A stretch of 63,976 nucleotides of DNA, the filler included, from Raillietiella orientalis (taxonomy: Eukaryota): the NCBI GenBank assembly GCA_036172245.1. It is 17 parts of 17 records of this genome, joined end to end, with 100 filler letters (N's around TTAATTAATTAA, not from the genome) between each part and the next. Parts side by side here need not be neighbours in the genome. Positions count along the whole stretch, not along the records: positions 12,924 to 17,000 come from JAYWIR010000355.1; 16 more parts are not named here. One strand, written 5' to 3'. The notes beneath the pieces were generated by a model, which had not been told where the DNA came from, did not search any database, and saw nothing but the letters and a program-made list of their open reading frames with translations. The translations under genes were made by a program, and so were the position numbers. Below are positions 3,001 through 62,644 of the stretch, one piece after another; the stretch's first letter is position 1; every line of letters begins with the position of its first letter.

Positions 3001-4227
3001 CGGCGTGCAAAGTGACTCGCCCTAATGAAATGTCGGACTGTTCTTCATCGACCTCTAAACGAAGGGAATTGCAACGTAGTGTGGTGATCCATGCCGGTAG
3101 ATTGCTTCGCACTGCCAACGGATGTTTCGTGAAAAAGCTCAAAAGTGCCAAGGTGAAATCTCCGTACTACGAATTGATTACAAAACAGCAAAAAATGTAA
3201 ATTAATACCATACCGTGAATCAGATCGAATTAAAAAATTCACTTTTTAACTCCGACAGTGGTTGCCATCAAAACAACACGGAGTGCAACGTGTCATACCC
3301 TAATCAAATGTCGGACTTTTCTTAATCCACCTCTGAAACCAGGAAATCGCATGATGGTGCGGTTTAATGACGGTAGATTGCCTCGCGCTGCCAACGGATG
3401 CTTCGTGAAAAAGTGCAGCAGTGCATGGTGAAATCTCCTCACTTCGAATTGATTACAAACCAGCAAAAGATGTAAATTTGTACCACACCATGAATCAGAT
3501 CGAATTAAATAATTCACTTTCTAATTCCGACAGTGGTTGCCAAGAAAAGAACACGGAGTGCAAAGTGTCCCACCCTAATCAAATGTCGGACTTTTCTTAA
3601 TCCACCTCTAAACGCAGGAAATCGCAAGGTAGTGTGGTGATCCTTGCCGGTAGATTTCCACGCGCTGCCAGCGGATGCTTCGTGAAGAAGCGCAAAAGGC
3701 CAATGGTGGAATCTCCGAACTACGAATTGATTACAAACCACCAAAAGATGTAAATTTATACCATATTGTGAATCTGATCGAATTAAATAATTCCCATTTC
3801 AATTCCGACAGTGGTTGCCATGAAAACAACACATCGTGAAAAGTGCCCCGCCCTAATGAAATGTCGGACTGTTCTTCATCCACCTCTAAACGCAGGAAAT
3901 CGCAAAGTAGTGTGGTGATCCGTGCCGGTAGATTTCCACGCGCTGCCAACGGATGCTTCGTGAAGAAGCGCAAAAGTGCAATGGTGAAATCTCCGTACTA
4001 CGAATTGATTACAAACCAGCAAAAGATGTAAATTTATACCATACCTTGAATCGGATCGAATTAAAAAATTCACTTTTTAACTCCGACAGTGGTTGCCATG
4101 AAAACAACACGGAGTACAAAGTGCACCGCTCTAATGAAATGTCGGAATTTTCTTAATCCACCTCTGAAACCAGGAAATCGCATGATGGTGCGGTGATCCA
4201 TGACAATAGATTGCCTCGCGCTGCCAA
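1..4227. repeat. Satellite DNA array, ~278 bp monomer, ~15 copies, trimeric (~831-834 bp) higher-order structure
   Basis: The motif TCCGACAGTGGTTGCCAT recurs every ~277-278 bp. Diagnostic variants (CACCTCTGAAACCAGG vs CACCTCTAAACGCAGG) and spurious ORFs recur at 831-834 bp offsets. Confidence 0.97.
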
Positions 4228-4327: not shown

Positions 4328-7300
4328 GCTTCGTTGCAGCCAGAACCCTCCAAGGCTGGCAAGAAGGCCGTAAGGCGTCCGGCCTCCCCTCAGGAGTCCC
4401 CCACTTCCGACCCCGAGGTGGAGGGCTGAAGCGCAGCCTCGGTTTCCACGGCACCGCGGAAGAAGGCTGGACGTAAGTCCACAAAGCCAAGGAAGCTCGT
4501 CTCCCCCGTCGAAGGGGAAGAGATGGCTTCCGCAAGCGAGGGTGCCATGAGCGTGGGAAACTCTCGGGACCCGTCGCCCGAGAGACTCCTTAGCACGGAC
4601 ACGGAGGGGATGGAGGGGATGGAGGCCGAACAGGTGCCTCGGGTGCCTGAGAAGGCCGAAACCCCCATGGACATCCCGCCCTTCTCGCAAGAGGAGGGCT
4701 CCCCCACACCTTAATCTTCCTAGCAGTAATGCCGGGAATCTCCTCCCGCCGTCGTCTGCGCATCGCCGTTTGAAACGTGAACGGCATGACAGACGCCGGC
4801 AGGAGACGAGACATGGCCGCCCTTCTCGAGTCCTACGACCTTGCGCTGCTGCAGGAGATCCACGTGATCTCTGCAGAACAAGCACAAGTGATCGAACGGA
4901 TCTCCGGAGGGCGGCTATGGTAAACGTGTGGGAGAGCGAAAAGTTGTGGTGTCGCCTACCTGCTTCGGCCAGGCGTCGTGGCCGCGGTTCGGGGCGTACG
5001 GTTCGACGATCACGGTCGTGTCGGCCAGCTGACTCTCAGGTGGTCCGACTCGATCGATCTGATCGTCACGAACGTGTACGCACCGAGCGGCAAGGACCTG
5101 ATGAACAGGAGGGCGAGGAAAGAGTTTTTCCTTGCCCTCCGGCGAGACCGGATGACCGAAGCAGGCGTGCGGAATGCCCATCTGGTTGCAGGCGATTTCA
5201 ACGTTCGCCTGAAACCAGATGGGCAGAAACCCGAGCGTGACCTGGTCAACGAGGTGTGCATGGCGGTGCACACCTGGAATTTGTTGGCCAGTGCACCGGG
5301 GATGGAAGACAGCATTGACCACGTGTTTGTTGACGAGCACCTGTGCCCTCGCGTGGGCAGGCGCGGCAATTTACCGTGCGAGCTGTCCGACCATCGCCCG
5401 CTAGTCCTCGAGATCCATCCGCGCGACAGGGGCCCGCCCTCGTCAGCGTGTCGTCTCCCAGGGGACAGGCTGAAGCTCCCGGACGCGGCGGAACTTCTCC
5501 GCACGTTCATACGGAGCTTCAGGCTCCGAACACTCCAGGATTGGGACCGCTTCAAGCGGTCGGTCCAGGAGCTCTGCGACCAGTTCCCCCTGCATCGCCT
5601 ACCTGCGGGATTTGGGGAGGGGTCGCGTAACGAAAGGTGCTATCTTCAAACCCGACGTTACGCGAGAACCCCCGACATGCACAGGTTAGCAGAGTATCGA
5701 GCGAAAGCCGAGAGGCAAGCCTGGCAATCCGCGTCGGCCAGCTTGCTGGACGACCAGGGCCGGGAGCACTCGGTTCCCGCTCAGAAACGCGGGATAGTGA
5801 GGAAATTTTACTCCTCCCTGTACACCAGGGCGCCTCCGGAGCGAGACGTCTCACGACTTCTGCTTCCGGAAGGTGCTCCAGCGATCGGGGAGGAGGAGAA
5901 AAGAAGCCTCGACGAGCCTTTCACGATGGACGAGATCCTGTTGGCCATCGGAAAGCTCCAGAAACGCAAGGCCCCAGGGGAGGACGGCCTGCCCGCGGAG
6001 TTTTACCAAACTTTCGCGGCTGAGCTTACCTTCCTGGTACAGCAACTCACCTTGCTGATACGCAAAACAGGTGACGTTCCCGCCTCGTTTCGATCGGCAA
6101 AGGTGCGGCTCCTCCCTAAGGGAGGAGATCTGAGGAGCATGAACAACTGGCGTCCCATCACAATAGTGAATGCGGACGCCAAATTGATAGCCAAGATGTG
6201 GGCAGAGCGTCTGGGACGGGTTGCCAACATCTTCATCAGCCCGGAACAGACATATGCTGTTCCCGGGCGAAGCATGGAGGCGAACCTGTTCCACGCTTCC
6301 ACCTGGCTAGAGCTTCAACATGAAAGGAGCTTGGTGCGCAGCCGGAATTCCGGTGCGTGCGCTGGCAAGGGGTTGGCTGGTCCGGTGGGGGAGGGAGCCC
6401 TTGCGGTCGCAATAGACTTGCGAAAAGGATTCGATTGCGTCGAACAGAATCTCCTTCTGGAGCTTCTGGAACGCTTGGGCTTCCCGGCCTCATTAGTGGC
6501 CTATCTGCGCTCCTGCTGCCGCGACGCGCACATCAATGTTACTTTCAGCGGGCAGACCGTGCACGGCGTGCCGGTGCGGCGTGGGATCCGGCAGGGAGAC
6601 AGCCTGAGCCCCTTGCTCTTCAGTACCTACTTTGAGCTGGTACTGAGAGCGTACAGGGGAACTCTGGCGCACCTGCCGCACGATTGTGCCGGTACGCCGG
6701 CCGTTTCAGCGTACGCGGACTACCTTCTGCTGCTGCTCCCTATGTCCACCCCGGCTGCGGCGGTCGAGAAGTTCTTCGACCTGCTGCATCGGGGAACCGG
6801 ACTTACGGTGAACAGGGCGAAGTCGTCCGTGATGCCAGTTGGTGCGGCGTGGGCAGGGCAGCAGGACTAGGTTCGTTTGGGGATCCCCTCGGTGAGGTAC
6901 TTCAAGTACCTTGGTGTGCCGTTGGGGGACTATTTCCCTGCGGAAGCGTGGTCCGGCTGCCTCCAAAAAGTAGAGACGGTGATCGGCCCGTTCCGAGGCG
7001 GCAGGTTTTTCCTGCCTGAACGGGCCGCGGTTTGGAACATGTTCGCGGCTCCTCTCCCCCGTTCCCTGCTTTTCGTTTGCACCCCCACAGAGAGGATAAA
7101 AAAGCGGACGAAGGACCTTCTCCGTATCGCCCTTTGGGGCAATGGGAGGGCCCGAGTCCGCTTAAAGGACTTGTGAGCTCCTCGTCGGGATGGTGGTCTG
7201 GGCCTCCTGACGCTGGAGCGGCTGGAGCTTCAGCTCCAGTTCCGTTTCATGGCTATTGTGCCGGAGTTGTGGTGCACCTGCTGGTGCGTTCCTGCACGTC

Positions 7301-8527
7301 TCCTCCTTCAGCAAGCCACCGGCAAGACGGGACTGACGTCGTTTCTTGCACTCCGTCGCCGCGTCAACCGATGCGGACTCCAGCTACGGAGGGTGGCTGC
7401 GCTAGCAAGGAAAAATCAAGGATTGCTCACCTGTCTCCCCGCAAACGGTAGTGCCTGGTTGCAGGAAACCGTTCGCACCTGGAGACAGTTCGGCATGCAA
7501 CGCTCCCAACAGGAACGAAGGTTCCTGTTTGGGGGTTACAGAAGTTGCACGCTCCGCGAGATCCTGGAGGATCCAAAGAAGAGAGCGTGTGCAGGAAGAA
7601 CCCCCCTTGCTGCTGTGCTCGACTCCCTAGTGGAACATCAGGACAGCGATGTTGCGGCGAAGTGGGAGGTTTCAGTTACAATCTCCGGAAAGGAGAAGAA
7701 GATAGGAGAGTGGAAGACGGGCCAGTTAACAGACGCTGCGACCCCGAGTACGCCTCCCAATGGACTTCTGAGCTGGGGCGCGCTGCTCGACGTTCCCATT
7801 CAACGTTTGAAGTGGTCCCCGGTACTGATGAACACTTCCACCCTTCCCTTAAAATGGCAGGAGTCGGCTCTCCTGTTACAGCACTGGGGACTCCCCTGCA
7901 ACGCCCGCCGACACCACTGGACCTGGGGAGCGGTGGACCCCTATTGCGTCAGGTGTGGGGAACGGGAGTCCCTCCCCCACCTGCTAGTGGATTGTGTTGC
8001 CCTCCGGCCCCTCTGGTTTCGCTTTGCCGCGGCCATCGGAATCCCCTGCGGCAACCCCAGGGACGCACTGAAAGCCCTCTTCGTTGCCGACGCCCTTCTG
8101 CCAGCGGCCTCGTTAGCAGCTTTGTGCTGCCTACGCGGGATCGTCACCGCTTGGAGCAAGGCTACGGGAGAACAACGCGACCAGGGTGCCATCCAGCCAG
8201 CCTCCCAGTTCCAGAGGAGGGCATCCCGATGGCCCCACCTGGATCCAGGAATACAGAAGGAGCTTGCCGGCATCCTGCAAAGGATGCAACGGCCCCACCA
8301 GCAACTGTGATCCCTTCCCTTACCCTCCCAGTTTTTTCTTTTCTTTTTGTTTTGTTTTTGTTTTTCCCCCTTCCCCCTGCTGCCGTGGTGGACCGTACCG
8401 GTCTGCAAACCGGTGACCCGGGAGGCTCTGTGTTTCTTCGTGCGTGGCTGGAGCAATGTTCCAGCCACAGCACGTCTTTGTAAATGTTTATTTTACAATA
8501 AACGCCCCGGCGAAATCCGGGTGAAAA
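4328..8527 (+). mobile_element. Tx1/L1-clade non-LTR retrotransposon, family A (ORF1 3' end, complete decayed ORF2, 3' UTR)
   Basis: ORF1 tail ends at 4714 and ORF2 ATG is at 4729. T-rich 3' UTR, AATAAA 8497-8502, hairpin, terminus TGAAAA 8522-8527. Confidence 0.95.
4729..8310 (+). pseudogene. ORF2 APE endonuclease-reverse transcriptase-zinc finger, family A, with in-frame stops
   Basis: (W)NVNG, LQE, GDFN and SDH (APE); WRPITIVN, DLRKGFD, GIRQGDSLSP, YADY (mutated YADD) and KYLG (RT); CVRC...HLLVDC. Stops at 4771, 4921, 6868 and 7174. Confidence 0.95.
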
Positions 8528-8636
8528 TCGAACGCCNNNNNNNNNNNNNNNNNNNNNNNNNNNNNNNNNNNNNNNNNNNNTTAATTAATTAANNNNNNNN
8601 NNNNNNNNNNNNNNNNNNNNNNNNNNNNNNNNNNNN

Positions 8637-12923: not shown

Positions 12924-12974
12924 GAGAGTTCTGCGAACAGTTCCCTGTGCAACGTCTTCCCCGGGGATTCGGCG
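12924..12974 (+). mobile_element. Host ORF2 fragment (EFCEQFPVQRLPRGFG) interrupted by an antisense family B insertion
   Basis: Translates as the conserved EN-RT linker seen intact at ~5575-5615, ~54595-54640 and ~56095-56140. Confidence 0.85.
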
Positions 12975-15079
12975 TTGCCACCCGGGTACGCCCGGGGCGT
13001 TTTTTTATAAAAACTCTACAATTGCGGTACCAGGCCCCGCTCACGGCCTTATGCACTTGACCTACCGGGACGCCGGGACACAGCCCGGCGTGGCACTCCC
13101 CGGCAGCGAAAGGGGATGGGGGAAAACAAAAATAAAAACAAAAAGGCAAAAAAAAAAGTGAGGTTGGGGGGCAGGGAAGAAATCACTGTTCGCTGAGAGG
13201 AGGGCCCATCCGTTGAAGGAAGCCCTCGAGGTCCATCCGTAGATTCCCCAGTTGGGGCCATCCAGCAGCTCTCCGCAAGAAGCGTTGGGCATATGGGATG
13301 ACATCCCTCGCGTGTTGACCCACTCCTTCCTTGTTGGTGTCGCTCCATGCCGCCACGATGCCTCGAACGCAGCACAAGGCTGCAAGGGCTGCGGCTGGCT
13401 GCAGGGCGCCCTTCACGAAGAGGGGCCGAAGAACGTTTCTAAGGGAACTGCCCGTTGGGAGACCGAGGATCGTCCCAAACCGTTCCCAAAGAAGACGAAG
13501 GGCAGCACAGTCCACAATAAGGTGGGAGAGCGATTCCCGCTCTCCGCACCTGACATACGCAGGATCCACAACTCCTCTTGTCCAGTGAGAGCGGCGTGCG
13601 TTGCAGGGTAAACCCCAATACAACAACAGCAACGCCGACTCTTTCCACTTAAGGGGCAGGATCCTGGATTCCTGAAGAAGCGGGGGCCACTTCAGCACAT
13701 CCATAGGGATGGCCAGCAGCTCTCCCCATCTTCTTAGTCCTCGCGGCTGGACGCTCGGGGTCGTGGCGTCACCCAGTTCTCCTGTTGTCCAGCCGCTGAT
13801 CAACTTTTCGCGTCCCTCGATGCAGCAAGAGACTTGCCACCTTGGCGTCCGGCTGCTGTGAAGTACCCTCTTCAGGAAGGGCAGCGCCGTAGCTAGACAG
13901 GTCGTCTCTGCCCACGTGCATCTTGCTGGACTCTCCAGGAGATTCCGCAGCGTGCAGCGGGCGTAGGGGCTGCATCGGAGACGATTCCACGTCTCGTGGC
14001 TTCTCTGGTTGACTACTGCCCACGTTCCAATATTCTCCTCCAGCCAGGCGGGGGAGTTGGCGGGGCAGCAAACCATCCAGCTGTTCTCCTTGGCCAATGT
14101 TGCCATGCGCCCGAGCAGTAGGCCGCATCTTCGCATCTACCGGCCACGGCTGAGAAGACAAGACGCGAGTCCATCGCACCGGGACACACGGCTGGCCTGG
14201 AGGCGGGCTGGAGTGCACCAAGGGGTGCACCACATGTTCGCTGGGATGGCGAGGGTTCGCCACCGCAGCTGCTTCTCCACGCGCTCCAGCGTCAGGAGGC
14301 CAAGACCGCCGTCCCGACGAGAAGCGCACAAGTCCTTCAGTGGGATTCGCGGCCTCCCCTTGCCCCAAAGGGCGATACGGAGGAGGTCCTTCGTCCTTTT
14401 CTTGGATTCCACGGTGGGAGCGCAAACAAAAAGCAAGGGGCGGAGGATGGGGGCCGCGAACGCGTTCCAAACCGCGGCCCGTTCCGACAAATTAAACTTG
14501 CCTTCCAGGAACGGGCCGATCGCCGTCTCGACTTTTTGGAGGCAGCTGGACCACACTTCCGCAGGGGAGTAGTCCCCCAACGGCACACCAAGGTACTTGA
14601 AGCACCTCGCCGTGGGGATCCCCAGACGGACCCAGTCCTGCTGCCCTGCCCACGCCGCACCTATTGGCACAACCTACGACTTCGCCCTGTTAACCTGCAG
14701 TCCGGTCCCGCGGCTGAGCAGATCGAAGAAGTCTCCGACCGCCTTCGCCGGGGTGGACATTGGCAACAAGAGCAGAAGATCGTCGGCGTACGCTGCTACG
14801 GCGGGCGTGCCGGGGCACGAGCTCGGCAAGGGAGCCAAAGTTAACCTGTACGCTCTCAGCACCAACTCAAAGTAGGTGCTAAAGAGCAGGGTGCTGAGGC
14901 TATCGCCCTGCCTTATGCCCCGCCGCACCGGCACGCCATACAACTTCTGTCCACTGAAACAGACGGTAATCATCGCATTCCGCCAGCAGGAGCGCAGGTA
15001 GGAAATCAGGGAGGGTGGGAAGCCCATGCGACCCAGGAGCTCCAAGAGGAGTTCCTGGTCTACACAGTCGAACGCCTTG
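12975..15079 (-). mobile_element. Family B element, 3' half of ORF2 (from RT KAFD to stop at 13183) plus 3' UTR
   Basis: KAFDCVDQELL, GIRQGDSL, YADD, KYLG, zinc finger; hairpin terminus at 12975-13000; closely similar to 56960-59061. Confidence 0.93.
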
Positions 15080-17000
15080 TGCGCTCCAGGGTGGAAGTGT
15101 TTTCTCGGTGCTCTTCGTGCCAGGAAGTCTCCCCCAGTGCAAGCGTCGTGTGGTTCGGTGGTCGATCAGGCAGCGAAGCCTGACGCGACCACCAGGGATG
15201 GCCAGGGGGCAGCGACAACGCCGCCCCCAGAGGCGATGGAGAGCCAGGGGGCGGCGGCAACGTCGCCCCCAGAGGCGATGGAGGTGGGGGCATCCGCCCC
15301 CACAGAATCGGTCCCCGCTGCAGCGCGGGCGTGGAGCGCCGTTATGTCGGCGCCATCGCCTGCAGCCGCGGCGGAATTGTCGGCCTATGTAGAGGAGGGG
15401 TACAACCCCTCATTGTTCTACAAGGTAGGCAATTTATATTCTTTAGAGAGCGCGCGCGCTTTCTCGAAGGGCATGCGCGCTCTCGATGTGAAAGAGAAGG
15501 AGCTCAGCGCTATGACCATCCGCAGCGGGGGTCTGCACGTTGAGGTCATCTGCAAACATGCAGAGCTGTCCCAACGACTGCTTAAAACCCCCGTTGTGAT
15601 GGGGACGCGCAGGCTCCTCCCCACTACGGCGGACCGCAGCATGGTGGTCCACCTGTTAGGCGTCACCGCGCGAATGCGCAAAGAACAGGTACGCGCCCCT
15701 TTGGAACAGTTCGGAACGGTCCACGCGCAGTGGACGAAAGTAAGTCCTTTCGAGGACTACACGGGGCTGCAACACGGCCTCACTGCTGCGCGCGTGACCG
15801 TTCGGGAGGGCTGCACTCTTCCCCACAAACTGGTGGTCGAAGGCGAAACCGTCGACCTCTGGTATGTGGGGAAGCCGAAATACTGTGGCTTCTGCAATAC
15901 GTCGGGCCACCTCAAAAAGAGGTGTCCCAACGTGCAGTGCCAAGTATGCGGCACAATGGGCCACACGAGGGAGGTGTGCCCAAAAGCAGCAGTGCGGGTG
16001 GTTTCCAAGAGAAACCTTAAAAAACGCGCCCGGCTTCTGCAGAAAAGGCTGGCGGCGAAAGCTGCCGCGAAGGCTGTGCCACCCGCGCCCAAGACCCAGG
16101 CCGCACCCGAGACCCCGGCGACCAACGCCGAAAAAGTTGAGGGAGCCGGCCAGGAGACTGGGTGGCAAGTGGCAACGGACAAAAAATCAAAGGAGAGGAG
16201 GATGGAAAAGAAAATCGCCTACCAACAGAAGAAGAAAGAGCAGGGTAGCGCGATAATTAAAGAGTGCAGCGTCGTTGTCGAACGGGTTCTCGATGTTGCC
16301 GAACGCTGCCGGAAAGAACTCGCCGCTACCGACGACCTCCCCTCTGTTGACACAGTCAACAGCGAGGGGAGCGAGCCGGCGGCGGCGTCCGTCATCGACA
16401 CCACCATCGATGACGTAGCCTTCGCGCGAGCCGCGGAGGAGCTGGCAGCTTCGTTGCAGCCAGAACCCGCCAAGGCTGGCAAGAATTCTGTAAGGCGTCC
16501 GGTCTCCCCTCAGGAGTCCCCCAATTCCGACCCCGAGGTGGAGGCCGGAAGCGCAGCCTCCGTTTCCACGGAACCGCGTAAGAAGGCTGGACGTAAGTCC
16601 AGAAAGCCAAGGAAGCTCGTCTCCCCCGTCGAAGGGGAAGAGATGGCTTTCGCAAGCGAGGGTGCCATGAGCGTGGGAAACTCTCGGGACTCGTCGCCCG
16701 AGAGACTCCCACGCGCGGACACGGAGGGGATGGAGGGGATGGAGGCCGAACAGGTGCCTCAGGTGCCTGAGAAGGCCGAAACCCCCATGGACATCCCGCC
16801 CGCCTCGCAAGAGGAGGGCTCCCCCACACCTTAATCTTCCCAGCAGTAATGCCGGGAATCTCCTCCCGCCGTCGTCTGCGCATCGCCGTTTGGAACGTGA
16901 ACGGCATGACAGACGCCGGCAGGAGACGAGACATGGCCGCCCTTCTGGAGTCCTACGACCTTGCGCTGCTGCAGGAGATCCACGTGATCTCTGCAGAACA
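15080..17000 (+). mobile_element. Family A element, 5' end, full ORF1 and start of ORF2 (ATG 16849)
   Basis: 5' UTR matches 21226-21544 (-); the ORF1/ORF2 junction matches 4328-4880. Confidence 0.93.
15236..16834 (+). CDS. ORF1 nucleic-acid-binding protein, family A (RRM-like region + 2 CCHC)
   Basis: CGFCNTSGHLKKRC and CQVCGTMGHTREVC, Lys-rich then acidic tail. First in-frame ATG used; the true start is uncertain. Confidence 0.85.
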   Translation: MESQGAAATSPPEAMEVGASAPTESVPAAARAWSAVMSAPSPAAAAELSAYVEEGYNPSLFYKVGNLYSLESARAFSKGMRALDVKEKELSAMTIRSGGLHVEVICKHAELSQRLLKTPVVMGTRRLLPTTADRSMVVHLLGVTARMRKEQVRAPLEQFGTVHAQWTKVSPFEDYTGLQHGLTAARVTVREGCTLPHKLVVEGETVDLWYVGKPKYCGFCNTSGHLKKRCPNVQCQVCGTMGHTREVCPKAAVRVVSKRNLKKRARLLQKRLAAKAAAKAVPPAPKTQAAPETPATNAEKVEGAGQETGWQVATDKKSKERRMEKKIAYQQKKKEQGSAIIKECSVVVERVLDVAERCRKELAATDDLPSVDTVNSEGSEPAAASVIDTTIDDVAFARAAEELAASLQPEPAKAGKNSVRRPVSPQESPNSDPEVEAGSAASVSTEPRKKAGRKSRKPRKLVSPVEGEEMAFASEGAMSVGNSRDSSPERLPRADTEGMEGMEAEQVPQVPEKAETPMDIPPASQEEGSPTP

Positions 17001-17100: not shown

Positions 17101-17175
17101 ATGGAGAAAAAAGTCGCGTACCGCCAGAAAAAACATCAGGCAAGCGAGCAAATTAAAAAATGCAGCGTTGTCGTT
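17101..17175 (+). mobile_element. Family A-type ORF1 fragment (MEKKVAYRQKKHQASEQIKKCSVVV), host of a family C insertion
   Basis: Homologous to 16202-16279 and to 47237-47312 (-). Confidence 0.85.
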
Positions 17176-21225: not shown

Positions 21226-21544
21226 CCTCCTCTACATAGGCCGACAATTCCGCCGCGGCTGCAGGCGATGGCGCCGACACAACGGCGCTCCACGCCCGCG
21301 CTGCAGCGGGGACCGATTTTGTGGAGGCGCAAGCCCCCACCTCCATCGCCTTCGAGGTGGACGTTGCCGCCGCCCCCCGGCTTTCCATCGCCAGTAAGGG
21401 AGGCGTTGCTGCTGCCCCCTGGCCATTCCTGGTGGTCGCGTCAGGTATCGTTGCCTTAGCGACCACCGAACCACACGACGCTTGCACTGGGGGAGACTTC
21501 CTGGCACGAGGAGCACCGAGAAAACACGTCCACCCTGGAGCACG
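21226..21544 (-). mobile_element. Family A 5' end (second member of a head-to-tail tandem)
   Basis: Matches 15080-15400. Confidence 0.9.
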
Positions 21545-21556
21545 CAAGGCGTTCGA

Positions 21557-24500
21557 TTTTCACCCTGATTTCGCCGGCGCGTTTATTGTAAAATAAACTT
21601 TTACAAAGACGTGCGGTTGCTGGAACATTGCTCCAGCTACGCACGAAGAAACACAGAGCCTGCCGGGTCATCGGTTCGCAGACCGGTATGGTCCACCACG
21701 GCAGCAGGGGGAAGGGGGAAAAACAAAAAACAAAACAAAAAAAAAAAGAAAAGTTGAGAGGGTAAGGGAAGGGATCACAGTTGCTGGTGGTGCCGTTGCA
21801 TCCTTTGCAGGATGCCGGCAAGCTCCTTCTGTATTCCTGGATCCAGATGGGGCCATCGGGACTCCCTCCTCAGCAACTGGGAGGCTGGCTGGATGGCACC
21901 CTGGTCGCGTTGTCCTCCCGTAGCCTTGCTCCAAGCGGTGACGATCCCGCGTAGGCAGCACAAAGCTGCTAACGAGGCCGCTGGCCGAAGGGCGTCGGCA
22001 ACGAAGAGGGCTTCCAGTGCGTCCCTGGGGTTGCCGCAGGGGAAACCGATGGTTGCGGCAAAGCGAAACCAAAGGGGCCGAAGGGCAACACAATTCACTA
22101 GCAGTTGGGGGAGGGACTCCCGTTCCCCACACCTGACGCAATTGGGGTCCACCGCTCCCCAGGTCCAGTGTTGTCGGCGGGCGTTGCAGGGGAGTCCCCA
22201 GTGCTGCAACAGGAGAGCCGACTCCTGCCATTTTAAGGGGAGGGCGGAAGTGTTCATGAGCACCGGGAGCCACTTCACATGTTCAATGGAAACATCCAGC
22301 AGCGCGCCCCAGCGCAGAAGTCCATTGCGAGGCGTACTCAAGTACTCAGCGTGTGTTAACTGGCCCGTCTTCCACTCTCCTATCTTCTTCTCCTTTCCAG
22401 AGATTGTTACTGTAACCACCCACTTCGCCGCAACATCGCTGTCCAGGTCTGTCATCAGGGAGTTCAGCGCAGCAGCGAGGGGGGTTCTTCCTGCCCACGC
22501 TCGCTTCCTTGGTTCCTCCAGGATCTCGCGGAGTGTGCAACTTCTGTAACCCCCAAACAGGAACCGTCGTTCCTGTTGGGAGCGTTGCATGCCGAACTGT
22601 CCCCACGTCCAAACGGTTTCCTGCAACCATGCACTACCGTTCAACGGGCGACAGGTAAGCAATCCTGGGTTTTTCCGATACAGCGCAGCCACCCTCCGTA
22701 GCTGGAGTCCGTATCAGTTGACGCAGAGACGGAGTGCAAGAAATGTCGTCAGTCCCGTGTTGCCGGTGGCTTGTTGGAAGAGGAGACGTGCAGGGACGCA
22801 CCAACAGATGCACCACAACTCTGGAAGGAGTGCCGACAAGCGGAACTGGAGCTGAAGCTCCAGCCGCTCCCGCGTCAGGCGGCCCAGACCACCATCCGGA
22901 CGAGGAGCGCACAAGTCCTATAAGCGGACTCGGGCCCTCCCGTTGCCTCAAAGGGCGATACGGAGGAGGTCCTTTGTCCGCTTTTTAATTCTCTCTGTGG
23001 GGGGGCAAACAAAAAGCAGTGAGCGGAGGGGAGAAGCCGCGAAGGTGTTCCAAACTGCGGCCCGTTCAGGCAGGAAAAACCTGCCGATTCGGAACGGGCC
23101 GATCGCCGTGTCTACTTTTCGGAGGCAGCCGGACCACGCTTCCGCAGGGGAGTAGTCCCCCAACGGCACACCAAGGTTCTTGAAGTACCTCACCGTGAGG
23201 ATCCCCAAACGGACCCAGTCCTGCTGCCCTGTCCACGCCGCACCAACTGGCATCACGGACGACTTCGCCCTGTTCACCGTAAGTCCGGTTCCCCGATGCA
23301 GCAGGTCGAAGAACTCCTCGACCGCCGCACTCGGGGTGGACATAGGGAGCAGCAGCAGAAGGTCGTCCGCGTATGCTGAAACGGCCGGCGTACCGGCACA
23401 GTCGTGCGGCAGGTGCGCCAGAGTTCCCCTGTACGCTCTCAGTACCAACTCAAAGTAGGTACTCAAGAGGAAGGGGCTCAGGCTGTCTCCCTGCTGGATC
23501 CCACGCCGCACCGGCACGCCGTGCACGCTCTGCCCGCTGAAAGTAACATTGTTGAGCGCGTCGCGCCAGCAAGAGCGCAGTTAGGCCACTAATGAGGCCG
23601 GGAAGCCCAAGCGTTCAAGAAGCTCCAGAAGGAGATTCTGGTCGACGCAATCGTATGCTTTTCGCAAGTCGATTGCGACCGCAAGGGCTCCCTCCCCCAA
23701 CCGACCATCCAACCCCTTGCCGGCGCACGCACCGGAATTCCGGCTGCGCACCGAGCTCCTTTCATGTTGGAGCTCTAGCCAGGTGGAAGCGTGGAACAGG
23801 TTCGCCTCCATGCTTCGCCGGGAACAGCATATGTCTGTTCCAGGCTGATGAAGATGTTGGCAACCCGTCCCAGACGCTCTGCCCAAACCTTAGCCACCAA
23901 ATTGGCGTCCGCATTCACTATTGTGATGGGACGCCAGTTGTTCATGCTCCTCAGATCTCCCTTAGGGAGGAGCCGCACCTTTGCCGAACGAAACGAGGCG
24001 GGATCGTCACCTGTTTTGCGTATCAGCAAGGTGAGTTGCTGTACCAGGGGAGTAAGCTCAGCCGCGAAAGTTTGATAAACCTCCGCGGGCAGGCCGTCAT
24101 CCCCTGGAGCCTTTCGCCTCTTGAGCTTTCCGATGGCCGAGAGGATCTCGTCCATCGTGGAAGGCTCGACGAGGGTCTTTCTCTGCTTTTCTTGCATCGC
24201 TGGAGCGCCTTTCGGAAGCAGGAGTCGTGAGGCGTTCCTCTCCGGAGGTGCCCTGGCATACAGGGAGGAGTAGTAACACTGCAGCAGGCCGCGGATTTGG
24301 GCAGGTGCCGAGTGCTCCTGGCCCTGATCGTCCAGTAAGGTGGCCGATCCGGACTGCCAGGCTTGCCTCTCGGCTTCCGCTTTGTATTCCGCCAGCCTGC
24401 GGATGTCGGGGGTCCTGGCGTAACGACGGGCCTGCAGGTAGGCTCGTTCGTTACGGACCCCGGTCCCAAAACCCGTGGGTAGGCGGTGCAGAGGGAACTG

Positions 24501-25194
24501 GTCGCAGAACTCCTAGAGCGACCGCTTGAAGCGGTCCCAATCCTGGAGTGTCCGCAGACTGAAGCTCCGTATGAACGTGCGGAGTTGTTCCGCCGCGTCC
24601 GGGAACTTTAGCCAGTCCCCTGGGAGACGCCACGCTGACGAGTGGGGGCCCCTTTCGCGCGAATGGATCTCGAGCACTAGCGGGCGATGGTCGGACAGCT
24701 CGCACGGTAACTTGCCGCGCCTGCTCACGCGAGGGCACAGGTTCTCGTGAAGAAACACGTGGTCAATGCTGTCTTCCATCCCCGGTGCACTGGCCAACAG
24801 ATTACAGGTGTGCACCTTCATGCACACCTCGTTGACCAGGTCACGCTCGGGATTCTGCTCATCTGGTTTCAGGCGAACGTTGAAATCGCCTGCAACCAGA
24901 TGGGCATTCCGCACGCCTGCTTCAATCAGCCAGTCTCGCCGGAGGGCAAGGAAAAACTCTTTCCTCGCCCTCTTGTTCATCAGTTCCTTGCCGCTCGGTG
25001 CGCACACGTTCGTGACGATCAGATCGATCGAGTCGGACCACCTGAGAGTCAGCTGGCCGACACGACCGTGATCGTCGAACCGCACGCCCCGAGCAGCGGC
25101 CTCGACGGTTGGCCGAAGCAGGTAGGCGACACCGCAACTTTTCGCTCTCCCACACCTGTACCATAGCCGCCCTCCGGAGATACGTTCGATCTCT
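21557..25194 (-). mobile_element. Family A element, decayed ORF2 (to stop at 21775) and 3' UTR
   Basis: Collinear with 4890-8527; several frameshifts and stops; KAYD variant at ~23650. Confidence 0.94.
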
Positions 25195-51788: not shown

Positions 51789-51909
51789 NNNNNNNNNNNN
51801 NNNNNNNNNNNNNNNNNNNNNNNNNNNNNNNNTTAATTAATTAANNNNNNNNNNNNNNNNNNNNNNNNNNNNNNNNNNNNNNNNNNNNCGTGGCCCCTCC
51901 CCAAATCCC

Positions 51910-54900: not shown

Positions 54901-55460
54901 GCCAGGCAATAGGGGAGGAGGAGAGGATCAGCCTCGACGAGCCTTTTTCTACCGGTGAAATTCTCGCCGGTATTAAAAGGCTTAAGAGGCGTAAGGCGCC
55001 AGGAGAGGACGGCCTGCCTGCGGAATTTTTTCAATGCTTCGCGACAGAGCTGGCCCCCCTGGTGCTCCAGTTGACCGGGCTGATCCGAAACGAAGGCGAC
55101 GTTCCCGCCTCGTTTCGGTCAGCCCGTGTGAGGCTCCTCCCGAAGGGAGGAGACCTGAGATCCCTAGGCAACTGGCGTCCGATCACAATTGTGAATACGG
55201 ACGCCAAGCTGGTCGCTGGACTGTGAGCTTCGCGTCTAGGACAGGTGGCAGACTCCATAATTAGCCCGGAGCAGACATACGCTGTTCCCGGGCGAAGTAT
55301 GGATGCCAACCTGTTCTTCGCGAGTACATGGTTCCATGTGCAGCGCTGCCTGAATGAAACTGGCGGAAAGATTGGCAACCCCACTTTGGGGCCGCCAGCT
55401 GGGCTGGGAATGGACACCCGGGCTGGGGAGGGGGCCCTAGCGATCGCGGTCGATCTCCAT
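51910..55460 (+). mobile_element. Family B element, full 5' end, ORF1, and ORF2 up to RT AVDLH
   Basis: 5' motif at 51919; ORF2 VASWNVNG...AGDFN...SDH...WRPITIVN; premature TGA at 55224. Confidence 0.94.
52006..53760 (+). CDS. ORF1 nucleic-acid-binding protein, family B
   Basis: ATG-initiated MAAMPEDTT (same start in the copies at 60555 and 62754); CGYCDAVGHLRKRC and CHLCGVKGHVHRVC. Confidence 0.88.
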   Translation: MAAMPEDTTMVVGVGEACPPPQPAESGASAPESCMATPRTWSAMVSAPSAETLAEQAAYRASGYEPSLVYKVGPLFDGPTARAFSRALKDFPVREEDLDGLSVLSGGQRVEVVCKDVALAQRLINTPLNVDGRKILPVSMDHSVVVHLTGITNRMTRSVVSNALSKYGEIHALWPKPTIFEGFNSHFGGQAAARVTVNEGSGLPHKLEVAKESVDLWYVGKPRYCGYCDAVGHLRKRCPNIECHLCGVKGHVHRVCPKRPTPVPPAAKKAQAKKGKKVESPYRDTGRPQPPSPVPPTQASEEKPAEDAGEEEGWKLVKARKEKKVPPVEPARAKREKSGKPYKPGPRSKTLRECTVALERIAVPEAATRGDEPPLAVSAAPEVRDDEPPVCTEGEPREARAESEDAAFAQAAEELAATLAERENSSRKAVRRPAPPKKAPAGECDLGAVSASSSSEAPPRKTGRKSQKPRRRLPSTSEEEKQEADGSVGIPEGEIPRAEVVEQATPMEEGEQGGEVLHAGADPVQPTRMEEGQQVGATPPEDDPPDAPLPMEEGDQVHAAPDPPPPPSVPPQQVADAADPISQE

Positions 55461-55560: not shown

Positions 55561-58500
55561 TGATTCTCAGCTGGTCCGACTCGATCGACCTAATCGTCAC
55601 AAACGTGTATGGCCCCAGCGGCAAACAGGGTTAACGCGACCGCACCAGGCTGCTGGAAACCCTGAAGCGCGACTGGCTGGCGGATACCAATGTGCGAAAT
55701 GCTCACCTGATAGCGGGAGATTTCAATCTCCGCCTGCTAACAGGTGAGCCGGAAACACAAGTGAACGCGATGAACGAGTTGTGCGCCGCCATGCGTGCGC
55801 GCAACTTGTTCCCGGGTGAGGAAGGAATGGTCCGCAGCATCGACCACGTCTTCCTGGATGCGGACCTGTGTTCTCGCGTCGGCAAAAGGGGGAGGGTTGT
55901 GTCGACTTTGTCGGAACATTCGCGGCTAATTTTCGAGATGCGGCCTCGCGACAAAGGACCGCCATCCAGGGATTGGCGTCTGCCGGGACACTAAATGCGA
56001 CTCCCAGGTGGGAAGGAACACCTTCGCGAATACCTGAGAGGCGTCACGCTCCGGAATCTCCAGGACTGGGACCTTTTTAAGGAATCGGTCCGCGAGTTCT
56101 GTGAGCAGTTCCCCCTGGATCGCCTGCCCCCCGGATTCGGCAAGGGTGCACGCAACCATCGGGCCTATTTACAGGCTCGTCGGTACGAGAGAACCCCTAA
56201 TGTCCGTCGCCTAGCCGAGTACTGCGCCGGGGCCGAACGCCAAGCCTGGCAATCCGGGTCGGCCAGCTTGCTGGACGACCACAGCCGGGAATGTTCGTCC
56301 CCGGCGTCGGTACGCCATTTCGTTCGAAGTTTTTAATCCTCCCTTTACGCCAGAAAGCCACCGGATCGAAACGTTTCTCGACGCTTGCTTCCGGATGGCA
56401 CCTCGGCAATAGGAGAGGAGGAGATGGAAAGCCTCGACGAGCCTTTTACCACCGGCGAAATTCTCGCCGGTATCAAAACGCTCAAGAGGCGTAAAGCTTT
56501 AGGGGAAGACGGCTTACCCGCGGTGTTCTTTCAGAGCTTCGCAGAAGAGCTGGCACCCCTGCTGCTTAAGTTGATCATGCTGATCCGAGACGAAGGCGAT
56601 GTTCCCGCCTCGTTTCGGTCAGCCAGAGTGAGGCTCCTTCCGAAAGGGGCAGACCTCAGGAATTTAAAGAACTGGCGTCCGATCACAATCGTGAATACGG
56701 ACGCCAAGTTGATCGCAGGGCTATGGGCTTCGCGTCTGGGGCAGGTGGCAGAATCCGTAATTAGCCCGGAGCAGACTTATGCTGTTCCCGGGCGAACTAT
56801 GGATGCCAACCTCTTCTTCGAAAGCACATGGGGGCACCTGCAGAGAAGAGAGCAGAAAGGGATAGGGAAAGTCGGCAACCCCACATTGGGGCCGCCAGCC
56901 TTGCTGGGAAGTGACCCCCGGGCAGGGAAGGGGGCCCTAGCGCTCGCAGTCGATCTCTACAAGGCGTTCGGCTGTGTAGACCAGGAACTCCTCTTGGAGC
57001 TCCTGGGTCGCATGGGCTTCCCACCCTCCCTGATTCCCTACCTGCGCTCTTGCTGGCGGAATGCGATGATTACCGTCTGTTTCAGTGGACAGAAGGTGTA
57101 TGGCGTGCCGGTGCGGCGGGGCATAAGGCTGGGCGATAGCCTCAGCCCCCTGCTCTTTAGCACCTACTTTGAGTTGGTGCTGAGAGCGTACATGGTGACT
57201 TTGGCCCCCTTGCCGAGCTCGTGCCCCGGCACGCTCGCCGTAGCAGCGTACGCCGACGATCTTCTGCTCTTGTTGCCGATGTCCCCCCCGGCGAAGGCGG
57301 TCGGAGACTTCTTCGATCTGCTCAGCCCAGGGACCGGACTGCAGGTTAACAGGGCGAAGTTGTCGGTTGTGCCAATAGGTGCGGCGTGGGCATTGCAGCA
57401 GGACTGGGTCCGTCTGGGGATCCCCACGGCGAGGTGCTTCAAGTAGCTTGGTGTGCCGTTGGGGGACTACTCCCCTGCGGAAGCGTGGTCCAGCTGCCTC
57501 CAAAAAGTCGAGACGGCGATCGGCCCGTTCCTGGAAGGCAAGTTTCACTTGCCGGAACGGGCCGTAGTTTGGAACGCCTTCGCAGCTGCCATCCTCCGCC
57601 CCTTGCTTTTTGTTTGCCCCGCCCCCGTGGAATCGAAGAAGAGGACAAAGGACCTCCTCCGTATCGCCCTTCGGGGAAAGGGGAGGCCCTGAGTCCCTCT
57701 GAAGGACTTGTGCGCTCCGCGTCGGGACGGCGGTCTTGGCCTTCTGACGCTGGAGCGCGTGGAGAAGCAGTTGCGGTGGCGAAGCGTCGCCATCGCAGCA
57801 AAGATGTGGAGCACCCCTTCGTGCCCTTCGGCTAGCCACCTGGACAGTGGTGTGTCCCGGTGCGATGGACTCGCCTCTTTTCTTCTGAGACGTGGCCGGA
57901 AGATGCGAAGATGCGGCCTACTTCTTGAGCTCATGGCAACATTGGCCAAGGAGAACAGCTGGATGGTTTGCTGCCCCGCCAACTCCCCCGCCTGGCTGGA
58001 TGAAAATATTGGAACGTGGGCAGTGGTTAACAAGACAAGCCACGAGACGTGGAATCGTCTCCGATGCAGCTCCTACGCCCGCTGCACGCTGCTTAATCTC
58101 CTGGAGAGTCCAGCAAGATGCACGTGGGCAGAGACGACCTGTGAAGCTACGGCGCTGCCCTTCCTGAAGAGGGGACTTCACAGCAGCCGGACACCAAGGT
58201 GGCAAGTCTCCTGCTGCATCGAAGGACGAGAAAAGTTGATCAGCGGCTGGACAACAGGAGAACTGGCAGACGCCACGACCTCGAGCATCCAGGCGCGAGG
58301 ACTAAGAAGATGGGGCGAGCTGCTGGCCATCCCTACTGATGTGCTGAAGTGGCCCCCGCTTCTTCAGGAATCCAGGATCCTGCCCCTTAAGTGGAAGGAG
58401 TCGGCGTTGCTGTTTTTGCATTGAGGTTCACCCTGCAACGCACGCCGCACTCACTATACAAGAGGAGTTGTGGATCCTGCGTGTGTCAGGTGCGGAGAGC

Positions 58501-59061: not shown

Positions 59062-59170
59062 CGCCGAATCNNNNNNNNNNNNNNNNNNNNNNNNNNNNNN
59101 NNNNNNNNNNNNNNTTAATTAATTAANNNNNNNNNNNNNNNNNNNNNNNNNNNNNNNNNNNNNNNNNNNN

Positions 59171-59625
59171 CTTCTTCGTTGCCGACGCCCTGTGGCCAGC
59201 GTCCTCGATAGCAGCCTTGTGCTGCCTTCGTGGGATCGTCGCCGCCTGGAGCACGGCGACGAGAGGACCTAGCGATCAGGAAGCCATCCAGTGCGCCTCC
59301 CAGTTCCTGAGGAGAGCGTCGCGATGGCCCCACCCTGATGTTCACAACAAACAAGAGCTTGCCAGCATCCTGAGAGGGATGATGCGGCCCCAGCAGCAAC
59401 AGTGATCCCTTCCCGTTCCCTCCCACCCTTTGTTTGTTTTTTTGTTTAGTTTTTTTGTTTTTCCCCTTTCCCTTGCTGCCTTGATGAACCGTACCGTTCT
59501 AGAAACCGGTAAATTGGCAGGCGCCGTGGTTCTTAGCTTCTGGCTGGAGCATTGCCACAGCCATTAATGATATGTTTACAAAGTTTATTTTTTTAATAAA
59601 CGACTCGGAGAAATCCGAGTGAAAA
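59171..59625 (+). mobile_element. Family A-type 3' end
   Basis: ORF2 C-terminus ...ILRGMMRPQQQQ*; AATAAA 59595, hairpin CTCGG/CCGAG, TGAAAA. Confidence 0.9.
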
Positions 59626-60453: not shown

Positions 60454-62644
60454 TCTCCTCGAGAGCGGACGTGTTTTTCCGGCGCTCCGCGAACGAGCAG
60501 CGGAAAGCGGTTTTTTTTTGTTCAGTGTGTGCTTCTTCACATCGTTGGTGTCCGATGGCATCGCTGCCAGAGGACACCACGATGGAGGTAGGCGTGAGGG
60601 AGGCTAGCCCCCCCCCACGACCTACAGAACCAGGTGCATCCGCCCCGGAATCGCCCTCGCCGCCCAAGGCGAGGAGCTGGAGCGCCATGGTGGCCGCGCT
60701 GAGCGCGAAAACCATGGCAGAGATGGCGGCCTACCGGGCAGCTGGGTACAAGCCCAGCTTGGTGTACCAGGTAGGCAATCTCTTTGACGGGCGAACTGCA
60801 CGCGCTTTCTCGAGGGCGCTGCAGAACGCCAACGTATTAGAAAAGGATCTTGACGGTCTATCAGTGCTCAGCGGAGGTCAGCGCGTCGAGGTTGTCTGCA
60901 AGGACATCACCTCGGCGCAAAGCTTGATTACCACCCCGCTGAACGTGGACGGACGCAAGATCCTACCAGTGACGATGGACCGCTCCGTAGTGGTCCATCT
61001 GACAGGGATCACCAGCCGCATGACGCGGTCTGCGGTTGGTGATCAGTTAAGAAAATATGGCAATGTTCACGCGCTATGGCCAAAGGCCACAATCTTCGAC
61101 GGCTACGATAGCCTGTTCGGAGGGCAGGCCGCCGCGCGCGTGACGGTGAAGGAGAGTGGGCTTCCCCACAAACTAGAGGTCAATGACGAAGTCGTAGACC
61201 TCTAGTACGTGGGGAAACCCCGCTTTTGTGGCTACTGCAATGCAGTAGGACACTTGCGCAAGCGGTTCCCGAACATTGTGTGCCACTTATGCGGGGAGAA
61301 GGGCCACGTGCGCCGCGTATGCCCTAAACGCCCCACTCCGGTGCCGCCTGCTGCAAAGAAAGCACAGGCAAAACGCGGAAAAATGGTCGAAAGACCAAAA
61401 AGAGATACTGGCCGGCAGCAGCCGCTAGCCCCTGTTCCTCCCACACAGGCGTCGGAAGAAAAACCTTCCGAAGACGCGGGAGTCCAAGACGGTTGGCAGC
61501 TGGTCAAGGCCAGGAAGGAGAAAAAGGTGCCCCCCGCGGAACCCGCGAAAGCGGTAAAAAAGACAGCCGGCAAAGGCGAAAAAACCTGGGCCGCGCTGCA
61601 AGACCATACGGGAATGTACGGTGACACTGGAGCGCATAGCCGTTCCCGAGACTGCCACCCAGGACGACGAGCCTTCCCACGCCGTTTCCGCCGCGCCCGA
61701 GGTTCGCGACGACGAACCCTCTGTTTGCACAGAGGGTGAGCCGCGCGAAGCGCGCGCCGAAAGCGAGGACGCCGCGTTCGCGCAGGCGGCGGAGGAGCTC
61801 GCGATCACGCTGGCCGAGCGTGAGAACCCCTCACGCAAGGCCGTGCGAAGGCCGGCTCCGCCGAAGAAGGCCCCCGCAGGTGAGTGCGACCTGGGGGCCG
61901 GAAGTGCATCCTCCTCGTCGGAGGCACCCCCCCGGAAGACGGGACGCAAGTCCCAAAAGCCGAGGAGGCGCCTCCCCTCCACGAGCGAGGAGGAGAAGCA
62001 GGAAGCCGACGGCAGCGTGGGAATCCCGGAGGGGGAAATCCCACGCGCGGAAGTCGCCGAGCAGGCCACCCCCATGGAGGAGGGTGAGCAGGGGGGCGAA
62101 GTCCTCCTTGCCGGAGCAGCCCCTGTACAGCCCACCCGTATGGAGGAGGGCCAACAGGTAGGCGCGACCCCAACGGAGGGTGACCCGCTCGACGCGCCGT
62201 CACCGATGGAGCAGGGGGACCAGGAGCTCGAGGCACCTGTCCCTCCTGCCAAAACTAGCGTCCCGCCCCAACAGGTGGCGGACGCCGCAGAGCCGATTTC
62301 CCAGGAAGAACACCTGGGCTCGCCTGTCGCCGTCGAATCCGCGTGGCCAGTTGGAACGTCAACGGGCTGCGCGACGACGGCAACAGACGAGATACGGCCG
62401 ACACCCTGCGTGAGTTCGACCTGGCTCTGCTGCAGGAGATCCACGTGATCACCTCGGCAGACGTCCAGAAGATCGGGACGATCGCGGGGGGTCGACTGTA
62501 TTGGCGATGCGGCGCCTGCAACACCTGTGGGGTCGCGTTTTTCGTGAAGCCGGCCATCGACGCTGCCGTGAAGGGCGTACGCTTCGATGACGACGGTCGG
62601 GTCGGTCAGCTGATTCTCAGCTGGTCCGACTCGATCGAATTGAN
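60454..62644 (+). mobile_element. Family B element, 5' end, decayed ORF1 and start of ORF2
   Basis: Collinear with 51910-54090; TAG at 61203, plus a frameshift. Confidence 0.93.

Follow-up and report, generated by a model that had tools for sequence, protein, structure and literature searches.

A family of LINEs found at the K-A-F-D codons of related LINE reverse transcriptases in Raillietiella orientalis

LINE families and the anatomy of family A

In the genome assembly of Raillietiella orientalis (GCA_036172245.1), a stretch of 63,976 bases (here called the window) is composed of 17 contigs, named c1-c17 in order of length (4,227 down to 1,233 nt) and separated by spacers of the form N44-TTAATTAATTAA-N44. 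The bulk of the window is non-LTR (long terminal repeat) retrotransposon sequence, i.e., long interspersed nuclear elements (LINEs), with an endonuclease of the apurinic/apyrimidinic endonuclease (APE) type. One of these families, family A, is the subject of this article, as all of its visible ends lie at the codons for K-A-F-D in the reverse transcriptase (RT) of other LINEs. An earlier, sequence-only reading had claimed that family A targets these codons with a duplication of about 12 bp; the contigs of which it spoke are real and correspond to the 17 blocks between the N spacers.

Pfam matches to Exo_endo_phos, RVT_1, or both are present on c2-c7, c10-c12, c14, and c15. On c16, Pfam finds only a weak zinc knuckle in open reading frame (ORF) 1, and the LINE identity of c16 and c17 rests on homology to the Pfam-matching contigs (blastn). 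Sorting by blastn among the contigs yielded the following families:

Family A: c4 15080-17000, c2, c6, and c11
Family A2: c7, 82% identical to c2 over the whole element and 73% identical to the c2 3' end
Subfamily A3: c16 59171-59625, 75-78% identical to the c2 3' end
Family B: c15 and c4 12966-15079
Family D: c14, c16 60454-62643, and c17
Family C: c5 and c12
Families F and G: two 5' parts, c11 43091-44414 (F) and c5 ~19612-21125 (G)
Family E: c3 and c10, a separate family

Because D is 80% identical to B where the two overlap, they are treated as one group (B/D). The ORF1 proteins of F and G are 30-46% identical to those of A and D.

Judged from its coding sequence, family A is a predicted autonomous LINE of about 5.6 kb that consists of ORF1, ORF2 (APE endonuclease and RT), and a 3' untranslated region (UTR). 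Its copies are distributed as follows:

4328..8527, plus strand (c2): end of ORF1, ORF2 with frameshifts, and 3' UTR with AATAAA, a hairpin, and the fixed GTGAAAA tail
15080..17000, plus strand (c4): 5' part with the 5' end TGCGCTCCAGGGTGGAAGTGTTTT, the 5' UTR, an open ORF1 frame, and the ORF2 start
21557..25194, minus strand (c6): copy 91% identical to c2, with its 3' end at 21557
21226..21544, minus strand (c6): 5' part of another copy, located downstream in a tandem, 91% identical to c4 15080-15398
59171..59625, plus strand (c16): 3' end of an A3 copy with the GTGAAAA tail as in A and a compensated hairpin

The ORF2 on c2 (4924-6867) contains both an endonuclease (Exo_endo_phos, 3.7e-06) and an RT (RVT_1, 2.5e-19). 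Its best match among solved structures is human L1 ORF2p (E 2e-36), the RTs available for comparison in the PDB being only those of L1 and R2. On c4, the ORF1 frame is open from 15002 to 16831 (stop to stop), and c4 16448-17000 and c2 4328-4880 are 95.7% identical. The element begins with TGCGCTCCAGGGTGGA... and ends with ...CCGGGTGAAAA; the 3' terminus is built from AATAAA, a 4-5-bp hairpin, and the fixed GTGAAAA, with exactly four A in the tail of all three A/A3 copies and no variable poly(A). A homologous 5' terminus (the GGACGTGTTTT motif) is found at both A and both D 5' junctions, which is a small sample. Pfam detected no zf-CCHC domain in the ORF1 of A or in that of c14; ORF1 of F contains one (7.4e-05), the match in G is weak (0.008), and zf-CCHC_2 is found in D on c16 (3.3e-04). 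At the start of the A ORF1 (15190-15300, plus strand), a short tandem duplication of the type GGCCAGGGGGCAGCGACAACGCCGCCCCCAGAGGCGATGGAG is repeated once with changes.

Family A ends and the K-A-F-D codons

When the A termini were searched with blastn, only two A 5' ends (c4 and c6) and three A/A3 3' ends (c2, c6, and c16) were found in the window. All five are located at the 12-mer that encodes K-A-F-D, in antisense orientation wherever the LINE that received the insertion (the host) is visible. The 3' ends (...GTGAAAA) are followed by TCGAA(C/T)GC in three of three cases, and the 5' ends are preceded by TCGAACGCCTTG in two of two. The features concerned are the following:

15068..15079, plus strand (c4): target 12-mer TCGAACGCCTTG at a 5' junction, antisense, in a B-type host RT, to the K-A-F codons together with the final base of the codon before them and bases one and two of D
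12966..15079, minus strand (c4): host LINE (family B), comprising the part between the K-A-F-D codons and its 3' terminus, cut upstream of K-A-F-D by A
21545..21556, minus strand (c6): 12-nt spacer TCGAACGCCTTG that separates two A copies in head-to-tail arrangement, interpreted as their common target-site duplication (TSD)
8528..8536, plus strand (c2): 3' flank TCGAACGCC, which covers target positions 1-9 and reaches the contig end
59626..60453, minus strand (c16): piece of a host A-type ORF2, bounded by the G-F-G linker codons and K-A-F-D, with the target 12-mer at 59626-59637
56960..56971, plus strand (c15): uninterrupted B-type target site CAAGGCGTTCGG, K-A-F-G in this copy
55449..55460, plus strand (c14): contig end ...GCGGTCGATCTCCAT, V-D-L-H (A-V-D-L-H), just short of the expected K-A-F-D codons

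On c2, the A 3' end ...GGGTGAAAA stops at 8527 and is followed by TCGAACGCC. The minus strand of c6 shows the same ...GGGTGAAAA, then TCGAACGCCTTG (21556-21545), and then the A 5' end CGTGCTCCAGGG. On c16, the A3 3' end ...GAGTGAAAA stops at 59625 and continues with TCGAATGCTTTATGCAAATCGACTGC, whose reverse complement translates to A-V-D-L-H-K-A-F-D; the counterpart of the c2 and c6 flanks is here TCGAATGCTTTATGC. On c4, TCGAACGCCTTG adjoins the A 5' end TGCGCTCCAGGG at 15080, and the minus strand translates at this junction to (H)KAFDCVDQELLLEL, in frame with the RVT_1 match, which begins at the junction with profile position 76. In human L1 ORF2p, the aligned counterpart of the K-A-F-D motif is IDAEKAFDKIQQ, ahead of the ...ADD... 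motif; this stretch belongs to RT motif A. The coordinates and sequences that the sequence-only reading had given for the junctions on c2, c4, c6, c14, and c16 were all correct on re-check; the c14 contig was also said to stop at AVDLH (55460), and it does, but this stop is weak evidence for the target site.

The copies that bear A/A3 ends are 77-96% identical to one another, and the 5' parts on c4 and c6, although 9% divergent, begin at an identical position of the element. In its exact form, TCGAACGCCTTG occurs twice in the window, each time at an A 5' end, and c5, c12, and c15 each contribute one match with a single mismatch, at their uninterrupted K-A-F-D/G sites. Allowing up to two mismatches gave 14 matches, where 7.5 are expected and none of 100 shuffles reached 14. 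Chance is thereby excluded as the source of the recurrence of the 12-mer. A further match with one mismatch at 40581 on c10 (CAAGCGTTCGA) was dropped for lack of an RT context, about one chance match being expected by a rough estimate.

Beyond the 12-mer, the host sequence continues in frame. The region c4 12966-15080 shares 91% identity with c15 59070-56959, an uninterrupted B copy, so that the host frame extends 2.1 kb past the 12-mer, and c16 59624-60453 is 89% identical to the A ORF2 on c2 (6436-5607), with a host frame of 0.83 kb. The in-frame host translations read HKAFDCVDQELLLEL and GALAIAVDLHKAFD; on c16, the host reads ...GALAIAVDLHKAFD and then runs into the antisense A3 tail. The hosts thus include family A's own relatives, A3 being located inside an A-type ORF2. 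Together, the five ends and the in-frame continuity of the hosts bear out the earlier claim of antisense insertion of A at the K-A-F-D codons of LINE RTs.

The 12-mer itself changes with the host. In host sense it reads CAAGGCGTTCGA on c4, where the host is B-type, as well as in the c6 spacer and on c2 (first 9 nt), the intact B site being CAAGGCGTTCGG. On c16, where the host is A-type, it reads TAAAGCATTCGA, which is also the sequence of the uninterrupted A-type sites on c7 and c11. Family A's own K-A-F-D codons differ from the flanking 12-mer (AAAAGGATTCGA on c2 and AAAAGCATACGA on c6), and A2 aligns with A as far as the A-rich tail, after which unrelated sequence follows. Since the 12-mer varies with the codon usage of the host family, it is target DNA and not a terminal repeat of the element. 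A and A3 appear to be matched to different host codon variants (AAGGCGTTCGA vs AAAGCATTCGA). The idea that the victim cannot easily mutate this site is only partly true, as the wobble positions and the last base of the preceding codon vary between host families.

The 5' flank on c4 and the 3' flanks on c2 and c6 overlap by the same 12 nt, and the spacer of the c6 tandem is exactly the 12-mer, in agreement with the duplication of about 12 bp that had been proposed. Two successive insertions in one site leave one TSD between the copies, and the c6 spacer thus fits a 12-bp TSD. Sequential insertions "sandwiching a TSD" are known for target-specific Tx1/SINEU elements, among the cases treated in PMC4494074. 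As the length follows from a tandem spacer and the overlap of separate flanks, the evidence for it is composite; a 12-bp TSD is well supported by these junctions, although it would be read from several insertions rather than off a single one. The count of independent insertions is at least three, the tandem representing two events at one site and c16 a different subfamily in a different host family. Twin priming or template switching was rejected as an explanation in view of the antisense host downstream of a complete 3' end, the complete 5' end against the host, and the duplicated 12-mer.

The G-F-G site and other nested LINEs

Family B/D has its own recurrent landing site, GGGATTYGGSG, at the G-F-G codons of the linker between endonuclease and RT. 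Its 5' and 3' flanks overlap by about 11 nt, i.e., about 11 bp are duplicated; the antisense form of the site is CSCCRAATCCC. The following features define this site:

60443-60453 (c16) and 51899-51909 (c14): site at 5' junctions
12964-12974 (c4) and 59062-59070 (c15): site at 3' junctions
60454..62643, plus strand (c16): 5' part of D, antisense at the host G-F-G codons, 85% identical to c14 51889-54093
51889..51909, minus strand (c14): 21-nt host flank of D, GGGATTTGGGGAGGGGCCACG on the minus strand; the second D 5' end starts at 51910
12924..12974, plus strand (c4): linker of host X, reading EFCEQFPVQRLPRGFG and stopping at the G-F-G codons against the B 3' end (minus strand; ...GGGTGGCAA)
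59062..59070, plus strand (c15): flank of the B 3' end, CGCCGAATC, a 9-nt sequence that also follows the B 3' end on c4
5607-5617 (c2) and 54632-54642 (c14): intact G-F-G sites

The 828-bp host fragment on c16 has been cut twice, by A3 at K-A-F-D and by D at G-F-G. The other families are nested as well: the C 3' end lies inside the ORF1 of A on both c12 (47238/47239) and c5 (17174/17173), which possibly go back to a single, duplicated event; that of A2 is placed in a B/D linker, ~70 nt upstream of G-F-G; the F 5' end is located in the endonuclease N-terminus of an A-type copy (c11, ~43086-43091); and the G 5' end in the N-terminal RT region of C (c5, ~19612). Within the window, A2, C, F, and G occur solely in other LINEs, in antisense and at one site each, and each visible LINE end adjoins another LINE and none adjoins unique DNA. 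The guest is antisense to the host in all eight host-guest classes, an outcome with a chance of ~0.4% if the orientation of each class were random. The sequence-only reading had missed this orientation, as well as the second site of B/D and the presence of family A's relatives among the hosts. A convincing nick-site consensus common to A, B/D, and C was looked for, and none was found.

At GTGATCGAACGGATC, where A-type copies encode the N-terminus of the endonuclease, four contig boundaries and the F 5' junction (TGCGCTCC...) cluster in a span of ~7 nt (c2 4880-4887 or its equivalents: the c4 end at 17000, the c6 end at 25194, the c7 start at 25295, and c11 ~43086-43091). This cluster may be a further hot site, for which a 5' junction only and no 3' junction was seen.

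The termini of the different families resemble each other. Eight LINE 3' ends (A, A2, A3, B, and C) carry A(A/T)AAACG, followed by a hairpin of 4-5 bp (CCGG/CCGG) and a short A-rich tail, and in the hairpin of the c16 3' end the outer pair is kept through a change at both sides. The 5' termini of A, D, and G, and more loosely that of F, have a common GGA(C/A)GTG(T/G)TTT motif 13-25 nt from the end, which may be an internal promoter or initiator. D copies show a few differing extra bases at the junction. The ends lie at the following positions:

3' ends: 8497-8527, 21557-21587 (minus), 59595-59625, 28876-28904, 59031-59061, 12975-13005 (minus), 47208-47238, and 17174-17204 (minus)
5' ends: 15080, 21544 (minus), 51910, 60454, ~19598-19612, and 43091

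The remaining contigs are of a different kind. Satellite arrays with a period of ~277 bp and a GC content of 41-43% (AT-richer) make up c1 (1-4227) and c13 (48213-51788); the two arrays are ~72% alike and run in opposite directions within the window. Contig c9 carries a complete 18S rRNA gene of eukaryotic type (33795-35627, plus strand; SSU_rRNA_eukarya, model positions 1-1831, 1739.8 bits), with GC-rich spacer-like DNA at either side. This gene was the sole Rfam match over the window, and the LINEs gave no match to ribozymes or any other RNA family. Contig c8 is unrelated to the LINEs and contains a weak Viral_Rep match (PF02407, 4.9e-06) in a 133-codon frame (29820-30218, plus strand) as well as a 224-nt inverted repeat (30675-30898 / 32885-33100, 92%).

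Searches were also extended beyond the window. A 19-nt piece of the A 3' UTR, scanned against metagenome contigs, gave 14 loci, all of them unrelated AT-rich chance matches and none with an A terminus, and an alignment of the window RTs yielded no confirmed relative in genome and viral contig collections. The chimeric junction peptide (...AVDLHKAFDFHSDFSESF...) returned six candidates from 5.8 billion proteins, none with E <= 10. An exhaustive phmmer search with the chimeric ORF against 1.84 billion representatives revealed one close relative, P0001 (69%), which has an uninterrupted RKAFDCVDQ; the next matches (P0009 and P0010) were discarded as unrelated, tandemly repeated LINE pseudo-proteins. 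Among the database relatives, P0001 is 69-72% identical and all others are at most 41% identical, and a protein atlas contained only generic RVT_1/Exo_endo_phos clusters. One sequencing run (X1) contains a fifth of the sampled words of c2. Its Logan contigs (163-264 nt, 8 listed of 128) showed, on c6, no joints or informative loose ends at 21544-21557 or 23651-23661, such fragments being uninformative on junctions.

Interpretation and comparison with known systems

Family A is probably an autonomous APE LINE that integrates by target-primed reverse transcription (TPRT) at the K-A-F-D codons of the RT of related LINEs, always in antisense. By analogy with Tx1L or R1, an endonuclease-driven, site-specific LINE would be the best-supported description. 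The positions and order of the nicks as well as the endonuclease specificity are predicted from the junctions: the A endonuclease would nick the host-sense strand inside the Asp codon, between its second and third bases (after ...AAGGCGTTCGA), and the freed 3' OH would prime cDNA synthesis, beginning with TTTTCAC, on A RNA, which TPRT would copy from its fixed GTGAAAA end. The opposite strand would be cut 12 bp off, after ...CCTTG on the element-sense strand, to give the 12-bp TSD. Insertion would split the host RT gene in motif A each time, so that the niche of family A would consist of other LINE copies, which are multicopy, dispensable, and constantly renewed. Family A would thereby be one member of a guild, in which B/D uses its G-F-G codons in a like manner. 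Given the uniform antisense orientation, the first nick would always be placed on the sense strand of the host. The antisense rule may reflect a strand-asymmetric sequence preference, transcription-linked access, or selection.

Other explanations have to be weighed against this one. The 12-mer could be a fixed terminal direct repeat of A, in which case the link to RT would be a coincidence or a rearrangement of A's own K-A-F-D region. The same 9-12 nt do occur after the 3' end (c2 and c6) and before the 5' end (c4 and c6), and all A copies at hand are located in LINE DNA, but the c16 12-mer differs at three of 12 positions and equals an intact A-type site, host homology continues in frame past the 12-mer, A's own K-A-F-D codons differ from it, and the related A2 ends with ...GGGTTTAAA and lacks it. 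A terminal repeat, which the sequence-only reading had named as what would refute its claim, is thus very improbable, the 12-mer having proved to be host-dependent. It is also conceivable that there is no true specificity and that LINEs pile up in a LINE-dense, Zepp-like compartment, where one or two chance insertions were copied by segmental duplication or gene conversion. This would agree with the observations that every LINE end adjoins another LINE, that junction-sharing copies are 91-96% alike, that C and its flank on c5 and c12 resemble one duplicated composite, and that A2, C, F, and G are found at one site each. Such a pile-up is nevertheless unlikely, since c16 combines a different subfamily (75-78%) and a different host family at homologous codons and at the exact base, the tandem requires two insertions at one site, the A 5' parts on c4 and c6 share their starting base despite their divergence, and B/D behaves alike at a second site with an 11-nt overlap of its flanks.

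The site might instead be set mainly by base pairing, if read-through A transcripts carrying TCGAACGCC... annealed to the nicked host-sense strand, as in an R1/R2-type proposal. The fixed tail with its four A in three of three copies is compatible with this, and cotranscription with the target is said, in a passage on other LINEs, to strengthen specificity (PMC4494074). With AATAAA ~22 nt before the end, which suggests that the RNA ends at or near the tail, with the second nick exactly 12 bp away left unexplained, and with A3 and A 12-mers that match the host rather than the donor, base pairing as the main determinant is considered decidedly improbable. Hardly credible, finally, is the explanation that the junctions are assembly chimeras of short-read contigs from related repeats. 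In its favor are the strong fragmentation of the assembly, the contig ends at or close to junctions (c2 8536, c14 55460, c14 51889, and c5 17101), and the clustering of four contig boundaries at the c2-equivalent 4880-4887; however, the sequence shared at the junctions is only 12 nt, where assembler words are usually longer, the same junction recurs in contexts that are 77-91% alike, and both junction types agree on site and orientation.

A number of observations weigh against integration of family A at K-A-F-D as set out above. All data come from one fragmented assembly, and none of the searches outside the window (metagenome, genome, viral, and protein) found further A copies. No A copy has both flanks on one contig, because the contigs measure at most 4.2 kb and A about 5.6 kb. 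The junction-bearing A copies differ by 4-9%, and some of the junctions could have arisen through later copying of a single composite instead of separate insertions, the c2 flank comprising only 9 nt. The single A2 3' end (c7) is located elsewhere, from which it follows that the specificity of the A group is subfamily-dependent or not absolute. Uninterrupted K-A-F-D sites are frequent, both among the visible sites of the A-D clade (seven of nine) and in family E (two of two). The endonuclease specificity, moreover, is a prediction, and annealing of read-through RNA to the target could contribute.

A more far-reaching and tentative proposal, somewhat more doubtful than not, is that the window represents a closed guild of sister LINE families (A/A3, A2, B/D, C, F, and G) that are obligate hyperparasites of one another, each endonuclease having evolved to recognize a different conserved coding motif of the guild's own ORF1 or ORF2 (K-A-F-D, G-F-G, and others) and always nicking the sense (non-template) strand. 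If so, each insertion would be antisense and kill the host copy, resulting in a self-limiting transposon ecosystem with reciprocal targeting. Host genes would be spared completely, and centromere-like LINE clusters could arise by a defined molecular rule.

Known safe havens of target-specific LINEs include rDNA, small RNA genes, microsatellites, telomeres, and some transposons. It would be new for a LINE to land in the codons for the active-site region in the RT of other LINEs, its own relatives among them, and a full-text literature search returned no report of a LINE targeting RT-coding motifs of other LINEs. If the interpretation is true, family A lives by breaking its own relatives rather than host genes, which would be a clean case of transposon hyperparasitism with the logic of an arms race, in which the victim is free to change only wobble bases. 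The K-A-F-D and G-F-G sites and the antisense rule would together constitute a base-level rule for the formation of nested LINE clusters, of which no counterpart was found in the accounts of Zepp-type clusters drawn on here. APE endonucleases with a specificity of ~12 bp would also be of practical interest as site-specific RNA-templated insertion tools, a use to which R2 is now put, according to the portions of two reports considered here (PMC11331408, 10.1101/2025.08.22.671877).

The closest known kind is the target-specific APE LINE, with Tx1, L1, and Zepp as candidate clades. In the Tx1 clade, ORF1 carries one or more CCHC zinc knuckles. As described in parts of the literature, Tx1-clade APE LINEs target other transposons: Tx1L inserts in the piggyBac-type Tx1D, Tx1-Mar in Mariner-N4_AMi, Tx1-8_Crp and Tx1-4_AMi in LTR retrotransposons, and Tx1-9_AMi in Harbinger (PMC4494074), and the target specificity of such LINEs has been attributed to the endonuclease (PMC4494074, PMC4640811). 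As far as these descriptions go, the likeness to family A comprises an APE and RT LINE, one site inside another transposon, a fixed orientation, a defined TSD, and tandems sandwiching the TSD. In contrast to the Tx1 clade, the family A target is the coding DNA of a conserved catalytic-domain motif in other LINEs, its own family included, and at least two related families in the window use different motifs of the same ORF2 and insert into each other.

Zepp and Zepp-like L1 LINEs of green algae (Chlorella, Coccomyxa, and ZeppL-1_cRei of Chlamydomonas) nest in their own copies and thereby build clusters, according to the sections of the literature cited (PMC8226300, PMC9940879). Family A is similar in that a new copy is found in an existing copy of the same family (A3 in an A-type ORF2, c16), the other nestings in the window being between sister families. 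Zepp arrays are described in these sections as consisting largely of 3' ends with 5' truncation, whereas the two A 5' ends are full length and both D 5' ends are homologous. Likewise, these published accounts mention no codon-level target for Zepp, whereas the family A site is exact to the base. Zepp-like LINEs are further characterized by a single localized, centromeric cluster on each chromosome.

In the R1 clade, both strands of a multicopy target are nicked, giving a precise 5' end and a fixed TSD, and the targets are rDNA or telomeric repeats. The endonuclease of these APE LINEs (R1, TRAS/SART) is sequence-specific, as stated in the part of the work cited here (PMC1919474). Unlike those of the R1 clade, the targets of A, B, and D are transposon genes, and R1 is co-oriented with target transcription, whereas all insertions in the window are antisense. 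Homing endonuclease genes, inteins, and mobile introns have recognition sites in conserved catalytic-motif codons, which limits the escape of the victim, and the A site overlaps such codons as well. Family A differs from homing elements in that TPRT would take the place of double-strand-break repair, the victim is destroyed without any splicing, and synonymous escape is visibly possible.

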